Positions 45,892 through 52,266 are shown, counted from the first letter of the stretch. The stretch: 64,000 bases of DNA from Caldisericia bacterium (GCA_963674785.1 OY771555.1:1248001-1312000), one strand, 5' to 3'. Numbers and translations: made by a program. Notes: generated by a model from the sequence alone, not told the origin.

Positions 45892-46941
45892 CTATTTTCC
45901 AGCAAATTCAAGTGTTGCTGGTTTCTCAGTGTATATATGCCCCTCACCCATCTGGTTATCAAATACTGACAGATGGAAGAGATAGTATGCATCTTCTTTT
46001 GGGTCATGAGCGAACTGTACCTGTCTTGCATCATTTGTGACAAGAGCTCTGCTCATTTCAACTGTCCACATCTTTGTGTCTTCATCGTAGGTTGCCATAC
46101 ATTTGATGTCTGGTGTTCCTTCAAGCTGAATGTAATATGGTGCAGTTGTTTCCACTGGCAATGAATTTAAGTTCTCTGGAACTGGCTTCATTGTTTCAAA
46201 TGTTCCAACCTGCTGAGGAACTGCCAATGGGATGTAAAGTGGGGATGCTACGTCTTTTTTGTTTGGAAGAAGTGAACCTGGAAGATAGATTATTGCAGAC
46301 TTAGTATCAAAAGTGTCTGCCTGATCATCAATTCCTGATCCAAGTGGACCAACGATGTGGTTTGTTGCAGCACCTGTGATAAATGTCTCGTGAGCATACC
46401 ATGTCCAGACATCAAGAAGCTCGCCCATATTTACGGAAGCCATGTAGTTTGGGCCACTGTGGCAAAGATTGTTGCAGCCTTCAGCATCGAATCCTTCGAT
46501 TGGAGTAACTTCAAATCCGATGGAGAGCATGTCCTGTCTTGGAAGTTTTGAACCGAATTTCCAGCTCTTGTTACCGTCTCGCTCTCTCATTTCCCACATT
46601 GTTCCAGCGAGATCCATTTTCTCGTCAGTCCATGTGAAAAGGAAGTATGCGTTGAAATCATCATATCCTGCTTTTGCAGTTATGACCATCTCTTCGTCCT
46701 CACTTGCAGCAGTTAATTCAATTGGGACTGCATCTAACCAGATGTCCTCAAGCTCTGAGGCGATTCCATCAATCTGGGGGGCAAGTGGTGCATAGTCTGC
46801 TGTTAATAACTCGGATGTTGGGGGTGCATCAAGTCTAGATGGAACATAGGAGCGAGAAGCTGGGAGTTTTACTCCACCACATCCAGCAATCAAACCCACA
46901 ACCACAACAATAGAGACAAAAGTAAGCAACGTTTTTTTCAT
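45892..46941 (-). CDS. lipoprotein with an ethylbenzene-dehydrogenase-gamma/DOMON-like heme-binding domain
   Basis: Lipobox LIAGC after ATG 46941; APQIDG, YFLFTWTD, QDML, GCNNLCH, LDVWTW, WTVEMSRAL, SVFD...H. Confidence 0.78.
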   Translation of the reverse strand: MKKTLLTFVSIVVVVGLIAGCGGVKLPASRSYVPSRLDAPPTSELLTADYAPLAPQIDGIASELEDIWLDAVPIELTAASEDEEMVITAKAGYDDFNAYFLFTWTDEKMDLAGTMWEMRERDGNKSWKFGSKLPRQDMLSIGFEVTPIEGFDAEGCNNLCHSGPNYMASVNMGELLDVWTWYAHETFITGAATNHIVGPLGSGIDDQADTFDTKSAIIYLPGSLLPNKKDVASPLYIPLAVPQQVGTFETMKPVPENLNSLPVETTAPYYIQLEGTPDIKCMATYDEDTKMWTVEMSRALVTNDARQVQFAHDPKEDAYYLFHLSVFDNQMGEGHIYTEKPATLEFAGK

Positions 46942-47154
46942 TTTCTCTCCTTCTCTAGTCATATGAATTTTTATTATTTTCTGCCAAATTAAATCTCAGA
47001 TTGACGTTATTTATGCTTGAAAGGCTCACAGAGAGAATGTAACACTTGCTGTTTTTCTAGTCAAGGAATTTCGTTGCTTGATATTGTTAATAAAAAATTG
47101 TAGAAATCTAATTTTTATCCTGTTAAACTTACAGCTATTATGGAGGTTAAACAT

Positions 47155-48375
47155 ATGAGAAAAACAGTTCTTGTTCTTTTAGTTTTGTTTTTAGGTGTAT
47201 CCTTTTTTGGATGCGGAGAAGAAAAACAAATCACAACAACAGAAAGCAGTATTTGGAGTTTTGCTGGAAAAGACTCACTCAGATCAGGAAGAGCTGTTGG
47301 TGAGATTTTACCTCCTTTTGGAGCATTGTGGACAAAAAGGTTGGATGGATTGGGAATATCTTCATCATCAATATTAAAAGTAAAGATTGATGAGAGTGAA
47401 AGTGCAAGAAGAGAAGTTGTTTTTGTTTCAGGAGGAGAAAAAACAACTGCTGCGATGGTTGTTGAAACGGGCGAAACCCTTTGGCAGATAAATCTCCCTT
47501 CAAGGCCGCTTGCCCCTGTTGCCTCCGAAAACTCTGTTGTTTTTGTGACGATGGATGGTGTCATTCAGTGTGTCGATGCTGAAACGGGAAATCAGAATTG
47601 GGCGTTAAGGTATACAACCGAAGGAGAAAAGATTTCCTATGAGGTTGCTCAACCTGTTATATCTGGTGACAACGTTTTTTTTGGGTTTGGAAATGGATTG
47701 GTGCTTGGTCTAAACATCTCTGATGGAAAAGAGGTATGGAGAAAAAATCTAGGCGACAGGATTAACTCCTCACCAATTGTTGTTTCTGGAAAACTTATCG
47801 TCGCTGACTACTCAAAGGAAGTTGCAGCTTTCAGGTCATACAACGGTGAAGAAGTTTGGAAAACTGAGCTTTCAGAACCAGTCATTGCTCAGCTAGCATC
47901 TGATGGAAAAACTGTTTTTGTATCGGGAGTTTTTGGGACAATCTATGCAGTTGACGTTGAAATTGGAACAATTGTTTGGCAATCAAATATAGAAGATTCC
48001 GTTGTTAATGGATCGTGTCTTGTGGGAGATAGTCTTTTTGTTCCAACAACTTCTGGAAAAATTGTAAACGTAAATAAGCTGACAGGTGAAGTTATAAACA
48101 GTGTTCAATCTGATGTCCCATCAACAGGGGTTGTGAGTGCTGGAGACAATCTCCTTTTTGCTACAGAGACTGGAAAGCTGATGGTTGTAGACATCAAAGG
48201 TAACCAAATTTCAGAAGCATACAAGTTTGAAACATGGAAAGAAAATGTTTCTGGTCAGAGTTTTGGAGATATTTCTATATCTTCAGGAAAGGTGTTTGTC
48301 TCAGATGGGCAGAGCAAATTCTTCTGTTTGGTTCCAAAGGACATTGCAATAAACGCTCATTCTGTTGATAAATAG
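47155..48375 (+). CDS. BamB-like PQQ beta-propeller lipoprotein
   Basis: Lipobox FFGC; eight-blade pattern (ETGETLW, ETGNQNW, SDGKEVW, NGEEVW); GGAGG SD. Confidence 0.85.
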   Translation: MRKTVLVLLVLFLGVSFFGCGEEKQITTTESSIWSFAGKDSLRSGRAVGEILPPFGALWTKRLDGLGISSSSILKVKIDESESARREVVFVSGGEKTTAAMVVETGETLWQINLPSRPLAPVASENSVVFVTMDGVIQCVDAETGNQNWALRYTTEGEKISYEVAQPVISGDNVFFGFGNGLVLGLNISDGKEVWRKNLGDRINSSPIVVSGKLIVADYSKEVAAFRSYNGEEVWKTELSEPVIAQLASDGKTVFVSGVFGTIYAVDVEIGTIVWQSNIEDSVVNGSCLVGDSLFVPTTSGKIVNVNKLTGEVINSVQSDVPSTGVVSAGDNLLFATETGKLMVVDIKGNQISEAYKFETWKENVSGQSFGDISISSGKVFVSDGQSKFFCLVPKDIAINAHSVDK

Positions 48376-48388
48376 ACAGCTTTAAGAT

Positions 48389-49045
48389 TTACTCTCTAAG
48401 TTTAGTCAACTGTTCGATTTTCTGTCTATCTCCCATTGCGATAAGCAGGTCTTCATCCCGAAGGGGTTCGTATGGGTCAGGAGGGACGATTACCTCTCCA
48501 TCTCTTCTGATTGCCAGAATCTGGATTTGATGAATCTTTCTAAGGTCTAGTTCAGAGATACTTTTCCCTTTGAATTCACCTGGTATGATGAATTCAGAAA
48601 TGGCATATTCATCTGATATTTCAATATATTCAAGGAATCCTGAGCCAGTAATTCGCCCAGCAATTCTTGTTGCCATATCTTCCTCTGGAGAAAAAATATC
48701 ATTTGCTCCAAGTTTTTCTAAAACTCTTGCATGAACAGCGTTTTCAGCCCTTGAGATTATGTGAGAAATCCCCATTTCTCCAAGCATCTGGGTGATGAGA
48801 ATGTTTGCCTCAAGGTTTCTTGCAAAACCCACAACAGCGACCTCACATTGTCCAACAAGGGTATCCCTAAGTCCTGTTTCATCAAGTGATCTCTGAAGTG
48901 AAACCTGTGTGGCAACTCCCTCCATCGCTTTTACTTTTGCAGGATCAGTGTCTATTGCAAGAACAGAATAACCTTCCGCTTCGAGCTCTTCGCACAAAGC
49001 TCTCCCAAATCTTCCCAATCCAAACACTGCAACATCAAGACTCAT
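48389..49045 (-). CDS. trkA: TrkA/KtrA potassium uptake regulatory subunit
   Basis: VFGLGRFG Rossmann motif, IISRAENAVHARVLEKLGA..PE, C-terminal RCK_C (GKSISELDLR, ILAIRR). Confidence 0.92.
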   Translation of the reverse strand: MSLDVAVFGLGRFGRALCEELEAEGYSVLAIDTDPAKVKAMEGVATQVSLQRSLDETGLRDTLVGQCEVAVVGFARNLEANILITQMLGEMGISHIISRAENAVHARVLEKLGANDIFSPEEDMATRIAGRITGSGFLEYIEISDEYAISEFIIPGEFKGKSISELDLRKIHQIQILAIRRDGEVIVPPDPYEPLRDEDLLIAMGDRQKIEQLTKLRE

Positions 49046-49121
49046 CTTATTCTCCTCCTTGACTGTTTACATCATCCATCTAAGATAATGACTCAATGAA
49101 TCTAATTTTCAAGGAGAAACC

Positions 49122-49280
49122 ATGATTAGAGTAGTTATTAAAAAACCTAGAAAATGCGAAATCGATGATGAAAAGTGTCGTGAATGTCAGACACCATGCA
49201 AGTCTGCTGCAAAAACTGCAAACACAATTGGCAACCAATCCTGTGAAGAAAAACAGGAAGAAACACGCTGGATATTATAA
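49122..49280 (+). CDS. scfA: divergent SCIFF-like ranthipeptide precursor (52 aa)
   Basis: Not in the ORF track. AAGGAG SD; MIRVVIKKPRKCEIDDEKCRECQTPCKSAAKTANTIGNQSCEEKQEETRWIL aligns with the SCIFF core CGECQTSCQSACKTSCTVxNQxCE. Directly upstream of a SPASM radical SAM gene. Confidence 0.9.
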   Translation: MIRVVIKKPRKCEIDDEKCRECQTPCKSAAKTANTIGNQSCEEKQEETRWIL

Positions 49281-50590
49281 ACTTTAAAAGACCTGGTATC
49301 ATTCATGTTTTTACCGTGAATGATACCAGTTTACTCTATGATACCTCAACTGGCTCACTTTTAGAGCTGGATGAGCATACAGCGATATCTGCAGAAAATA
49401 TTAGAAGTAGCACGGATTTAGCAAAAATTAATAACCCAAACATTCAAGCAGATTTTAAGTTGTTGTTTGATGATGGGGTTATTCTGTCGGATATTATTTT
49501 TCCAAAACCTCAAAAACTGAGACCAAAATCCCTTTGCTTAATTGTTTCACATGCCTGTGATATGAACTGTACATACTGCAGTTTGGCGGGAATTACAGGT
49601 GAAGACAAACTGATGAAACCTGAGGTCGCAAAAAAGGCTTTATCCTGGCTTGTTGATGCTTCACCTGGAAGAAAAATCGATATTGATTTCTTTGGGGGAG
49701 AACCCTTGCTTGCATGGGAAACCGTTGAACAAACAGTTTTGTTTGGTGAAAAACTCATGCAAGATAATGACAAACTCATCAGATGGTCACTTTCTACAAA
49801 CTGTCTTGGTCTTGATGATGAAAAGATAAAGTTTTGCAAAGACCATTATGTTTCATTGATCATGAGTCTTGATGGCACAAAAGAAAATCATGATAAGTAT
49901 CGAAAGCTGAAAAATGGGGATGGCTCGTTTGACAAGATTTTTCCTACAATAAAAAAGATCACAGAAAACTGGAATCAGGGATTTTATGTGCGCGGCACTT
50001 ATACAAAGGAAACCATTAATTTCTCAGATACGATCGTCGCTCTTCATAAGTTGGGGATAAAAAACCTCGCTTTTGAGCCGGTTGTCACTGGTGATAAAGA
50101 AATCGGATTTACATTAGATGATTTGCCAAGAATCCGTAATGAATATGAAAAACTCGCAAAATACTATGTCTCATGCAAGAGGAACAGCATTCCAATAAGG
50201 TTTTATCATTTTGAACTTAATCTCGATGGAGGGGTTTGTTCAAGAAAAAGTGCCGGTGGGTGTGGTGCTGGATGTGAATACATCTCAATTTCTCCAGAGG
50301 GTTCAATGTGGGTTTGTCATCAACTTGATGGAATTGATGAATATAAAATAGGCAGCCTTGATAATCCTCCGACAGAAAAGGTTTTTGATAGACTAAGTGA
50401 GATTAATCACATCACGAATAAGAATGAGTGTCCCGATTGTTGGGCAAGTTATTTGTGTGCGGGTGGGTGTATTGCAAGCAATGTTTTGTATGAAGGTGAT
50501 TTCGCAAGCCCATACAGAATTGGTTGCGAGATTCAAAAAATAAGACTCGAAACCGCTTTGTGGATTCAGTCGGAGTTATCAAAGGAATAG
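49268..50590 (+). CDS. scfB: radical SAM/SPASM peptide maturase (ScfB/CteB-like) with N-terminal RRE
   Basis: CDMNCTYC, DFFGGEPL, SLDG, VRGTY, FYHF; SPASM Cys array C..GCGAG..WVCHQ..CPDCWASYLCAGGC..C. Homology extends upstream of GTG 49316, so start placed at CTG 49268 (uncertain). Confidence 0.9.
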   Translation: MDIINFKRPGIIHVFTVNDTSLLYDTSTGSLLELDEHTAISAENIRSSTDLAKINNPNIQADFKLLFDDGVILSDIIFPKPQKLRPKSLCLIVSHACDMNCTYCSLAGITGEDKLMKPEVAKKALSWLVDASPGRKIDIDFFGGEPLLAWETVEQTVLFGEKLMQDNDKLIRWSLSTNCLGLDDEKIKFCKDHYVSLIMSLDGTKENHDKYRKLKNGDGSFDKIFPTIKKITENWNQGFYVRGTYTKETINFSDTIVALHKLGIKNLAFEPVVTGDKEIGFTLDDLPRIRNEYEKLAKYYVSCKRNSIPIRFYHFELNLDGGVCSRKSAGGCGAGCEYISISPEGSMWVCHQLDGIDEYKIGSLDNPPTEKVFDRLSEINHITNKNECPDCWASYLCAGGCIASNVLYEGDFASPYRIGCEIQKIRLETALWIQSELSKE

Positions 50591-50606: not shown

Positions 50607-50957
50607 ATGGCGGTTTATCCGACTGATGATGAGATTATTCAAAAGTATTCTAAGGATTTATGTTTTGAGGACAGGAAATTGTTTATCGCTGAGTTTGAGT
50701 TACTAAAAAAATCAAATATTGTATACCTTGTTCTGATACTTTTTTTGGGAGGTCTTGGGATACATAAGTTTTACCTTGAACAAACTGGACTTGGAGTCCT
50801 TTATTTGCTGACAGGAGGAGTCTTAGGTTTTGGAACATTGTTTGACCTGTTTACATTTCTTTCTGCGACATATCACCATAATGATGCTCTTGCTTACAAG
50901 ATTTCACAGAAGTATACAGCAACTCTTCCATCTTCTGAGTATTCTCCCTGGGTTTAA
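50607..50957 (+). CDS. TM2 domain-containing membrane protein
   Basis: KKSNIVYLVLILFLGGLGIHKFYL...GVLYLLTGG..FG..FDL; GGAGG SD. Confidence 0.9.
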   Translation: MAVYPTDDEIIQKYSKDLCFEDRKLFIAEFELLKKSNIVYLVLILFLGGLGIHKFYLEQTGLGVLYLLTGGVLGFGTLFDLFTFLSATYHHNDALAYKISQKYTATLPSSEYSPWV

Positions 50958-50967
50958 AACTATTTGT

Positions 50968-51501
50968 CTATTGCCACTTAAAATAGAATTCTGAGTATGG
51001 GCTCTCCGGTCTTTTTTTTGTTCTTTCTGATTTTGTTGGCCAGTGTCCGTATCCTGCGATTATAGATTCGATGACACCCATCACATAAAAATCATTCATA
51101 AGATTTGTTGATCGGATAATAATCTCGTTGTTTTCAGATTTGATAAGCTCAACTTTACCATGGGATTCTTCGTTTGGGTTTCCAGAGTTTCCAAACATAT
51201 GTTCGACTACTCCTATACCCTTTTCAAGACTCTTATCATACCCCTTCACAAGATCAATTGCGTTTCCTTCGCCTTGCCAGCTTCGTTGCCATACTTTTCT
51301 GCCAAGTACCTTAATTCCAATCTCTCCAACGAAGCTTTCTAGTTTGTCGATATACGGAGTCATGCTTGTTTTGACAAATACTTCTTCGTCGTCTCTAAGT
51401 GTTTCGAAATCAAGACCCGATGCCTCTCTGCAAGCTTTCCTGTACCTATTTGCAACCATTGCATCTATCTCTTTCAAAAACTTTCCTCTTGTCTTTTCCA
51501 T
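50968..51501 (-). CDS. hypothetical protein (possibly V4R/H-NOX-like ligand-binding fold)
   Basis: 177-aa ORF with its own promoter TTGACT-17-TAATAT. Fold guess rests only on the C-terminal G.VE....IIR...F..GVIESI pattern. Confidence 0.7.
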   Translation of the reverse strand: MEKTRGKFLKEIDAMVANRYRKACREASGLDFETLRDDEEVFVKTSMTPYIDKLESFVGEIGIKVLGRKVWQRSWQGEGNAIDLVKGYDKSLEKGIGVVEHMFGNSGNPNEESHGKVELIKSENNEIIIRSTNLMNDFYVMGVIESIIAGYGHWPTKSERTKKRPESPYSEFYFKWQ

Positions 51502-51951: not shown

Positions 51952-52266
51952 ATGGCAGTTTATTTAAGTGATTCAGAGTTAATTGCTCAAAACTCGAGAG
52001 GTATGTATGAACAGAAGAAGCTTGTCTTTATTACTGAGTACAATGGTTCTAAGAAATCTGATACAATCAATTTCTTGCTCGTTTTTTTTCTAGGTTTTTT
52101 GGGTATTCATAAATTCTATTTGGGAAATGCTGGAATGGGTGTGCTTTACTTTTTAACATTTGGAATATTTGGATTTGGATCATTGTATGATTTGTTCACA
52201 TATAAGGCCGCAGTTTTTCATCACAATAAGGACTTAGCATCCAAGATTGCTTCAAAGTATCAGTAA
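51952..52266 (+). CDS. TM2 domain-containing membrane protein (paralogue of 50607-50957)
   Basis: KKSDTINFLLVFFLGFLGIHKFYLG..GMGVLYFLTFG; same MAVY start as the paralogue; AGGAG SD. Confidence 0.9.
   Translation: MAVYLSDSELIAQNSRGMYEQKKLVFITEYNGSKKSDTINFLLVFFLGFLGIHKFYLGNAGMGVLYFLTFGIFGFGSLYDLFTYKAAVFHHNKDLASKIASKYQ

Follow-up and report, generated by a model that had tools for sequence, protein, structure and literature searches.

A SCIFF-type ranthipeptide system, which probably works although its precursor lacks the cysteine used in the one mapped SCIFF cross-link, was identified in a 64,000-nucleotide stretch of the genome of a Caldisericia bacterium (GCA_963674785.1, OY771555.1:1248001-1312000; hereafter the window, with positions counted from its first nucleotide). 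SCIFF peptides are among the most widespread families of ribosomally synthesized peptides with post-translational modifications (RiPPs) that are matured by radical S-adenosylmethionine (SAM) enzymes. The system consists of an open reading frame (ORF) encoding the 52-aa peptide MIRVVIKKPRKCEIDDEKCRECQTPCKSAAKTANTIGNQSCEEKQEETRWIL and of a ScfB/CteB-like radical SAM/SPASM maturase gene that follows it directly (Table 1). In this peptide, positions 4 and 5 of the six-cysteine pattern C-x2-C-x3-C-x3-C-x3-C-x6-C are occupied by Ala30 and Asn34, as a preceding sequence-only reading had proposed for the equivalents of Cys32 and Cys36. As far as can be judged from the sequence, the published link of the fourth cysteine to Thr37 or Thr34 cannot form because the donor is alanine, although the equivalents of both acceptors (T35 and T32, respectively) remain. 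A thioether is most likely still made, from another cysteine.

According to PMC8326336, the native structure and function of SCIFF peptides are unsettled, with one mapped link and five conserved cysteines left unexplained. Tte1186 and CteB form one thioether from Cys32, "the fourth cysteine", whereas the acceptor is disputed, being Thr37 in vitro and Thr34, at C-gamma, in Escherichia coli; these reviews give no known role for the other cysteines (PMC8326336, PMC8172795). The CteB crystal has Cys21 of a truncated substrate bound to the open iron of auxiliary cluster 1 (AC1) (PMC8326336), and selenium extended X-ray absorption fine structure data placed the donor residue of Tte1186a on the same cluster (PMC10177961). 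In a literature search for SCIFF together with Caldiseric, no paper mentioning the Ala/Asn form was found, and no title on cysteine-deficient variants was among the matches listed for SCIFF and ranthipeptides.

Precursor peptide

The peptide gene was read exactly as it had been quoted, with the Shine-Dalgarno sequence AGGAG located 5 nt before the ATG. The product comprises a leader extending to approximately residue 18 and including Cys12, a core of the form C19-x2-C22-x3-C26-x3-A30-x3-N34-T35-x5-C41, and a tail (residues 42-52) ending in W-I-L. The Pfam SCIFF profile PF13165 matched residues 2-42 with 43.4 bits, above its gathering threshold of 27. In a six-frame search of the host genome (a single contig of 2.23 Mb) with this profile, the window peptide (42 bits) was the sole SCIFF match, and the window maturase was the sole ScfB-like gene. 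The description of the system as unannotated was correct for the ORF track from which the sequence-only reading was made, but not for the NCBI/ENA protein sets: the exact peptide is already on record there, near-identical peptides are named SCIFF, and its 90% cluster includes a member named "six-cysteine ranthipeptide SCIFF [Caldisericia bacterium]". The host was placed in Caldisericota by the names attached to homologues, in agreement with the proposal that a precursor of the SCIFF lineage and an intact maturase occur together in a host outside the clostridia. The retained acceptor threonine was likewise found (T35); however, T32 is kept too, and the literature is divided between their counterparts.

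Conservation across Caldisericota

Ninety-three genomes of the phylum were searched; a maturase homologue was found in 85 of them, and the DNA around the maturase was read in 70. Maturase identity was 54-73% in the ten other genomes of the host's family, which comprises three genera including that of the window, and did not exceed 48% elsewhere. A SCIFF-like ORF stood directly upstream of the maturase in 68 of the 70 loci, and the remaining two were cut by contig ends. The fourth and fifth residues were Cys/Cys in 21 loci (from the other class of the phylum, from the two sister families and, in one case, from a further family), Cys/Val in 19, Cys/Ser in 10 and Cys/Met in 7 loci (one family each), and Ala/Asn in all 11 loci of the host's family. 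Thus, among the 68 readable loci, the fourth cysteine was absent only in the host's family, whereas the fifth was replaced in 47, so that loss of the fifth cysteine, although present as described, is common in the phylum. Residues C19, R20, C22, C26, S28, A29, K31, T32, T35, N38, Q39 and C41 were invariant in all 68 loci.

The motif ...CKSAAKTANT... was found in all 11 family genomes. A protein-database search returned six other clusters (63-87% identity), all with CKSAAKT[A/S]NT and a WIL end, three of which were named SCIFF and originated from Caldisericia or Caldiserica. Comparison of the 24 core codons in 21 pairs among seven host-family loci gave synonymous change (pS) of 0.32-1.02 versus nonsynonymous change (pN) of 0-0.09. 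Judging from this pattern, the precursor is a translated peptide under strong purifying selection, with synonymous sites near saturation. Since the SAAKTANT arrangement recurs in 11 of 11 family genomes under such selection, it is well beyond chance and is not a one-off decay, and the proposed conserved, cysteine-deficient SCIFF subfamily is supported, its chemistry being predicted from sequence.

The remaining features that had been put forward as peculiar to the variant differed in their distribution. The leader cysteine was indeed family-specific, occurring in 11 of 11 peptides, although at a spacing of 6 or 7 residues from the first core cysteine; among the other 57 peptides of the phylum it was seen, as judged by eye, in one only (L046). 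The GG doublet is missing before the core, as stated, but it is missing in all 68 readable loci, and a tail of the type W/F/Y-I/V/M-L/W/F, related to the WIL end, occurs in all the examined families of the host's class; neither is therefore specific to the variant.

The maturase tree (quick IQ-TREE run, LG+G4, 74 rows, six named Firmicutes ScfB sequences as outgroup; L055 and L063 excluded for lack of a whole enzyme frame) agreed with the taxonomy, and the SCIFF system is probably vertically inherited within Caldisericota. The host's family was recovered as a single clade (SH-aLRT 100) that has the six-Cys families as its sister group (SH-aLRT 94) and a stem branch of 0.61, within the range of the other family stems (0.59-0.79). 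On this tree, the fourth cysteine was lost once and the fifth at least three times. Two interrupted maturase frames were seen, in L065 (G074; stop after 72 aa) and L055 (G092; one internal TAG), and may be pseudogenes or assembly errors.

Maturase and its cofactor sites

As had been stated, the ORF following the peptide gene encodes an intact radical SAM/SPASM enzyme. Its best family is TIGR03974, all Fe-S cysteines are kept, and among solved structures the best match is CteB (5WGG, 287 bits over residues 58-420). Matches to the PapB (225.5 bits) and QhpD (156.6 bits) families were weaker and well below the cut-offs of these families. The AlphaFold2 (AF2) model of the protein read from the CTG (see below) had a pLDDT of 93.5, with confident strands at residues 12-17, 20-25 and 31-34; residues 9-438 were superimposed by VIA-align on residues 1-450 of 5wgg_A with Z = 46.4, a root-mean-square deviation of 1.8 over 418 residues and 32% identity. 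The model shows the overall CteB fold and an N-terminal leader-binding domain resembling the RiPP recognition element (RRE), provided that the start lies upstream of the listed GTG. In the 5WGG alignment, C316, C334 and C385 correspond to the CteB AC1 ligands C344, C362 and C413, and C372, C375, C381 and C404 to the ligands of auxiliary cluster 2 (AC2) C400, C403, C409 and C432, with C308 located upstream; only three protein ligands map to AC1, as in CteB. The three radical-SAM and eight SPASM-region cysteines were kept in every group compared, and no stops were found in the 11 maturase frames of the host's family.

The family enzymes were compared with 63 others (57 from Caldisericota and six named ScfB). 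Four sites were fixed in all 11 family members: Ser89, directly after the cluster motif (Phe in 63/63 elsewhere); Asp122, in the strand before FFGGEP (Glu in 62/63); Ser160, in the ..TN strand (Thr in 63/63); and Ala252, in the ..EPVV strand (Ser in 63/63). Cys174 was also present in all 11 and in 1 of the 63 others, 56 of which carry Leu, and a small deletion follows the cluster loop in the family enzymes. In the AF2 model, the family-specific sites lie in core strands or beside the cluster loop. Since the four sites are fixed and the stem branch of the family is within the normal range, we infer from the model that the enzyme has been retuned at its active site and has not decayed. Extra cysteines are carried by the family maturases at C163, C174, C287 and C320. 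Cys320 (CGAGC, beside an AC1 ligand) was considered as a fourth AC1 ligand defining the family and was ruled out, as it is present in only 6 of the 11 family enzymes (0/63 elsewhere).

SCIFF precursors without the fourth cysteine in other lineages

A search of 1.84 billion proteins yielded 463 hits at E ≤ 0.001, and the best 150 of the 463 cluster representatives were used. The core was found in 149 of these 150, with all six cysteines in 144 of the 149 and the fourth missing in one; cysteines 1-3 and 6 were present in all 148 representative cores. The representative without the fourth cysteine (P0278) consists of two SCIFFs fused in 92 aa and is assigned to Parvimonas by its name. Eighty Firmicutes loci were retrieved with P0278, a sample biased toward its relatives, in which Ser stood at the fourth-Cys position in 9 of 130 cores, from five loci (L078, L079, L080, L106 and L139; L078-L080 also have Ser at the fifth Cys), under the NCBI name SCIFF. 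An intact maturase was located beside all eight Firmicutes loci checked (the five variant and three others). According to these sequences, donor loss across SCIFFs is rare but recurrent, since the host's family and five Firmicutes loci are without the fourth cysteine. The absence of a Cys32 equivalent is consequently distinctive within the phylum but not among SCIFFs as a whole, whereas the Ala/Asn form with a leader cysteine was seen only in the host's family.

The position of Thr37 was occupied by Gly in 129 of the 130 Firmicutes cores, and the Thr34 equivalent was invariant; a joint loss of the donor and of Thr37 in these variants was ruled out, as the Gly is subfamily-wide whatever the fourth residue. 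It should also be noted that a large subfamily among these Firmicutes loci (L078-L157) carries paired SCIFF cores at each locus, both within a single ORF of about 90 aa in seven of the eight loci checked (L139 showed one), and that an Orn/Lys/Arg decarboxylase gene stands directly upstream in 11 of the 12 loci tested.

Start of the maturase gene and the downstream hairpin

The GTG listed as the maturase start is probably wrong. An I-H-x-F motif, which also opens the named ScfB proteins (M[IV]HKF...), precedes this GTG, and conservation of the His and Phe in this motif reaches at least 90% in an alignment of 88 sequences. A start at the GTG would remove the counterpart of the first eight residues of CteB, and a clone made from it would be without the first strand of the leader-binding domain. 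In public gene calls for this clade the start varies, and protein lengths range from 339 to 469 aa.

The first table-11 start in the maturase frame is a CTG that overlaps the codon of peptide Trp50 and gives a protein of 440 aa. In the sister clade, the maturase ATG lies inside a peptide Trp codon in 12 of 13 loci (..A TGG ATx TGG TAA = ATG GAT ..), 13 nt ahead of the end of the peptide stop, and the equivalent codon is CTG in all 11 loci of the host's family. No in-frame ATG, GTG or TTG precedes I-H-x-F in 8 of the 11 family loci; the other three, all of one genus, have such starts only within the peptide gene, about 100 nt upstream. The His codon follows the peptide stop at a distance of 23, 17 or 8 nt, which is 2 mod 3 in every case. 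In the window, the C of the CTG is supplied by CGC, the next-to-rarest Arg codon (2.8% versus 63% for AGA in the long ORFs of the window), and in the other family genera by CCC, which accounts for 12-29% of Pro codons; the commonest synonymous codons would have made ATG instead of CTG. Thus, by codon usage, this C is kept against codon bias. The CTG is favored as the true start with a somewhat better than even chance, an ATT/ATC codon before the His is a minor candidate, and other starts account for the rest. CUG and AUU/AUC are reported to initiate at 1-2% of the AUG level in E. coli (bioRxiv 10.1101/063800). The start is probably weak by design and coupled to termination of peptide translation.

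The peptide stop is followed, ahead of the body of the maturase gene, by a perfect 15-bp hairpin with a 7-nt loop, which spans the listed GTG and might act as an attenuator or as a brake on translation. In the window, the 90-nt region beyond the peptide stop had a folding energy of -29.7 kcal/mol (z = -6.10; none of 200 shuffles was as stable). This region folds unusually stably in all eight family loci tested, with z from -1.97 to -6.10, and z ranged from +0.84 to -4.17 in 12 loci tested from other families. A single hairpin common to the whole family was ruled out, as the registers differ between genera. The weak start and the hairpin together would be expected to hold the enzyme far below the level of the precursor. 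RiPP operons usually keep the enzyme far below its precursor. A search for sequencing runs gave ten holders, of which none is recorded as RNA. A -1 frameshift fusing peptide and enzyme was judged unlikely: inspection by eye of the final 31 nt of the peptide gene revealed no slippery heptamer, and the start in the sister clade is an ordinary ATG. An overlapping, apparently non-AUG maturase start is of importance for annotation.

Possible mechanism and alternative explanations

The precursor would be made in excess from its own Shine-Dalgarno sequence and ATG, and the maturase translated weakly from the CTG inside the peptide Trp codon, behind the strong hairpin. The N-terminal RRE-like domain of the maturase would bind the leader, and the CX3CX2C cluster would cleave SAM; a cysteine thiolate of the peptide would then be taken onto the open AC1 iron and joined to a side-chain carbon radical, as in the relatives of the enzyme. 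A thioether is still likely because the enzyme looks equipped for SAM cleavage and for receiving a thiolate at cluster 1. The candidate donors are C19, C22, C26, C41 or the leader Cys12, with T24, T32 and T35 as likely acceptors. By spacing, C19-x4-T24 would mirror Cys32-x4-Thr37, and C22-x-T24 would mirror Cys32-x-Thr34; further candidates are links of C26 to T32 or T35, and links from C41 or Cys12.

Several observations weigh against this interpretation. Only the fourth cysteine has ever been seen cross-linking, both in vitro and in E. coli, and no precedent is known for other donors (PMC8326336, PMC8172795). The family scoring suggested in the sequence-only reading identified TIGR03974 as the best family of the maturase, but both NCBIfam equivalog cut-offs were missed, and functional equivalence with characterized SCIFF systems is consequently not assured: the peptide scored 43.7 bits with TIGR03973 (cut-off 50), and the maturase 349.7 bits from the GTG, or 350 from the CTG, with TIGR03974 (cut-off 425). 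The peptides of the two other genera of the host's family scored 39.8 and 44.8, and those of the sister and other families 49.1-57.2; the corresponding maturase scores were 387.5 and 367.4 for the two genera and 382-512 for other Caldisericota families. In addition, Phe replaces the first core Cys in one metagenomic database variant of the family's peptide (P0007, 60 aa).

The sequence-only reading had held a different ring topology to be required, but the other cysteines could just as well be modified in all SCIFFs, with only the mapped link lost here, a possibility raised because the mapped donor is dispensable and cysteines 1-3 and 6 are not. A bolder version is conceivable, although we consider it doubtful: the mapped link between the fourth Cys and Thr would be peripheral, or an artefact of heterologous assays, with function resting on unseen modifications or on metal ligation by the other four cysteines. 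If it were true, the window peptide, with four plus one cysteines, would be a natural minimal substrate for finding those modifications. The leader Cys12 might instead replace the fourth cysteine as the thiolate to AC1 and form a much larger ring onto T32 or T35. Its presence in 11 of 11 family loci, and otherwise only in L046, implies a gain on the same branch as the loss of the fourth cysteine, and the CteB crystal shows that a cysteine N-terminal to the donor, Cys21, reaches the open AC1 iron (PMC8326336); nevertheless, this arrangement is improbable, as a residue that forms a ring would not usually stand at a variable distance from the first core Cys, and the position lies in the normally removed leader.

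A further view is that no thioether is made at all, the four invariant cysteines serving as metal or Fe-S ligands or forming disulfides, while the maturase performs other chemistry (e.g., epimerization or formation of a C-C link) or has chaperoning as its main role. The retention of cysteines 1-3 and 6 in 68 of 68 loci and in the 148 representative cores, with the sole experimentally mapped donor dispensed with, is consistent with it, as is the otherwise unexplained conserved Trp tail; but the enzymes nearest to the maturase in sequence and fold form thioethers (CteB with Z = 46.4, then the PapB and QhpD families), and AC1 keeps the three-Cys arrangement of CteB, which receives the substrate thiolate, so that this view appears improbable as well. 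Lineage-specific decay, with a relic peptide and an enzyme that is idle or being lost, would account for the scores under the curated cut-offs and for the lack of a canonical start codon before the conserved N-terminus. It is close to refuted by the invariant core in 11 genomes of three genera despite near-saturated synonymous change, by the retention of all cofactor cysteines, by the 11 maturase frames free of stops and by the C of the CTG kept against codon bias. A thioether from another cysteine thus remains the preferred explanation. The host's family represents a family-wide natural "donor knock-out" with an intact, apparently co-evolved enzyme and six-Cys sisters for comparison, and this clade gives an experimental handle on which SCIFF residues matter.

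Features of the window and neighboring genes

The TrkA and TM2 neighbors named in the sequence-only reading were both present, but the TM2 gene is not a conserved partner. All 11 family loci have a TrkA gene beside the pair, and 10 of them a BamB-like gene, while the TM2 gene was found only in the window and in one locus of the same genus and was ruled out as a partner on this ground. None of the TrkA, BamB-like and TM2 genes was present in the loci of other families, and they are therefore treated as inherited neighbors and not as parts of the system. The window contains two paralogous TM2-domain genes flanking a 177-aa ORF without a family match; an EB_dh-like protein and a BamB-like beta-propeller are encoded upstream.

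Table 1. Positions of the precursor-maturase pair and of neighboring genes in the window
Feature	Position	Strand	Basis or remark
EB_dh-like protein gene	45892-46962	-	
BamB-like beta-propeller gene	47140-48375		
TrkA-N/TrkA-C gene	48389-49045	-	Pfam; divergent, upstream
Shine-Dalgarno AGGAG of precursor gene	49112-49116	+	Read in sequence; ATG at 49122
Precursor peptide gene, 52 aa, SCIFF lineage	49122-49280	+	PF13165 and TIGR03973 matches; kept in 11/11 host-family loci
Core region C19..E42	49176-49247	+	T32 and T35 correspond to Thr34 and Thr37 of CteA
Codon of A30 (fourth-Cys position)	49209-49211	+	
Codon of N34 (fifth-Cys position)	49221-49223	+	
CTG, candidate true maturase start	49268-49270	+	13 nt before end of peptide stop
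Maturase gene, ScfB/CteB-like radical SAM/SPASM	49268-50590 (440 aa, from CTG) or 49316-50590 (424 aa, listed GTG)	+	TIGR03974, CteB fold
Perfect hairpin spanning GTG 49316	49293-49329	+	RNA fold
CX3CX2C radical SAM cluster motif, C81/C85/C88 (counted from GTG), then Ser89	49556-49579	+	Sequence, 5WGG alignment
SPASM region	50237-50527	+	5WGG alignment, conservation, ligand list of PMC10177961
TM2 gene	50607-50957		Pfam
177-aa ORF without family match	50968-51501	-	
Second TM2-domain gene	51952-52266		

Comparison with known systems

The pair is similar to CteA/CteB (thermocellin, Clostridium thermocellum; 5WGG/5WHY) in the order of precursor and maturase, the CX3CX2C motif, the AC1 and AC2 cysteines and the fold of the enzyme, and both peptides carry the core C-x2-C-QT-x-C-x-SA-x-KT...NQ-x-C. 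Unlike CteA, the window peptide has Ala for the fourth Cys (the donor Cys32), Asn for the fifth and no GG before the core, and it carries an additional Cys in the leader and a tail of 10 residues that ends in WIL. The enzyme differs from CteB in having S, D, S and A where 62-63 of the 63 other maturases have F, E, T and S, and in a start that overlaps the peptide gene. In the SCIFF pair Tte1186a/Tte1186 of Caldanaerobacter subterraneus, one Cys-Thr link is formed from the fourth Cys, with the donor thiolate on AC1 (PMC10177961); the AC1 ligands are conserved in the window maturase, whereas the donor residue of Tte1186a is absent from the window peptide.

The nearest systems by the enzyme tree are the six-Cys sister loci of Caldisericota (L024, L033, L035, L036, L057-L062, L064, L065 and L069), which share with the window the TPCKSA..KT...GNQ core, the W-tail and a maturase start overlapping a peptide Trp codon, but have all six cysteines, no leader Cys and ATG (12/13) where the host's family has CTG. 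The fused double-SCIFF precursors of Parvimonas, Tissierellia and Christensenellales (P0278, L078-L080, L106 and L139) are also without the fourth Cys and are located beside an intact ScfB-type maturase; in contrast to the window peptide, they have Ser in place of Ala, two cores per ORF, Gly at the Thr37 position and a GG, lack the leader Cys and W-tail, and score 142.7 bits with TIGR03973, well above its cut-off. PapA/PapB (freyrasin) and QhpD represent homologous radical SAM/SPASM thioether formers whose substrates are unlike that of the window maturase, namely, CX3D repeats in PapA and a large protein for QhpD.

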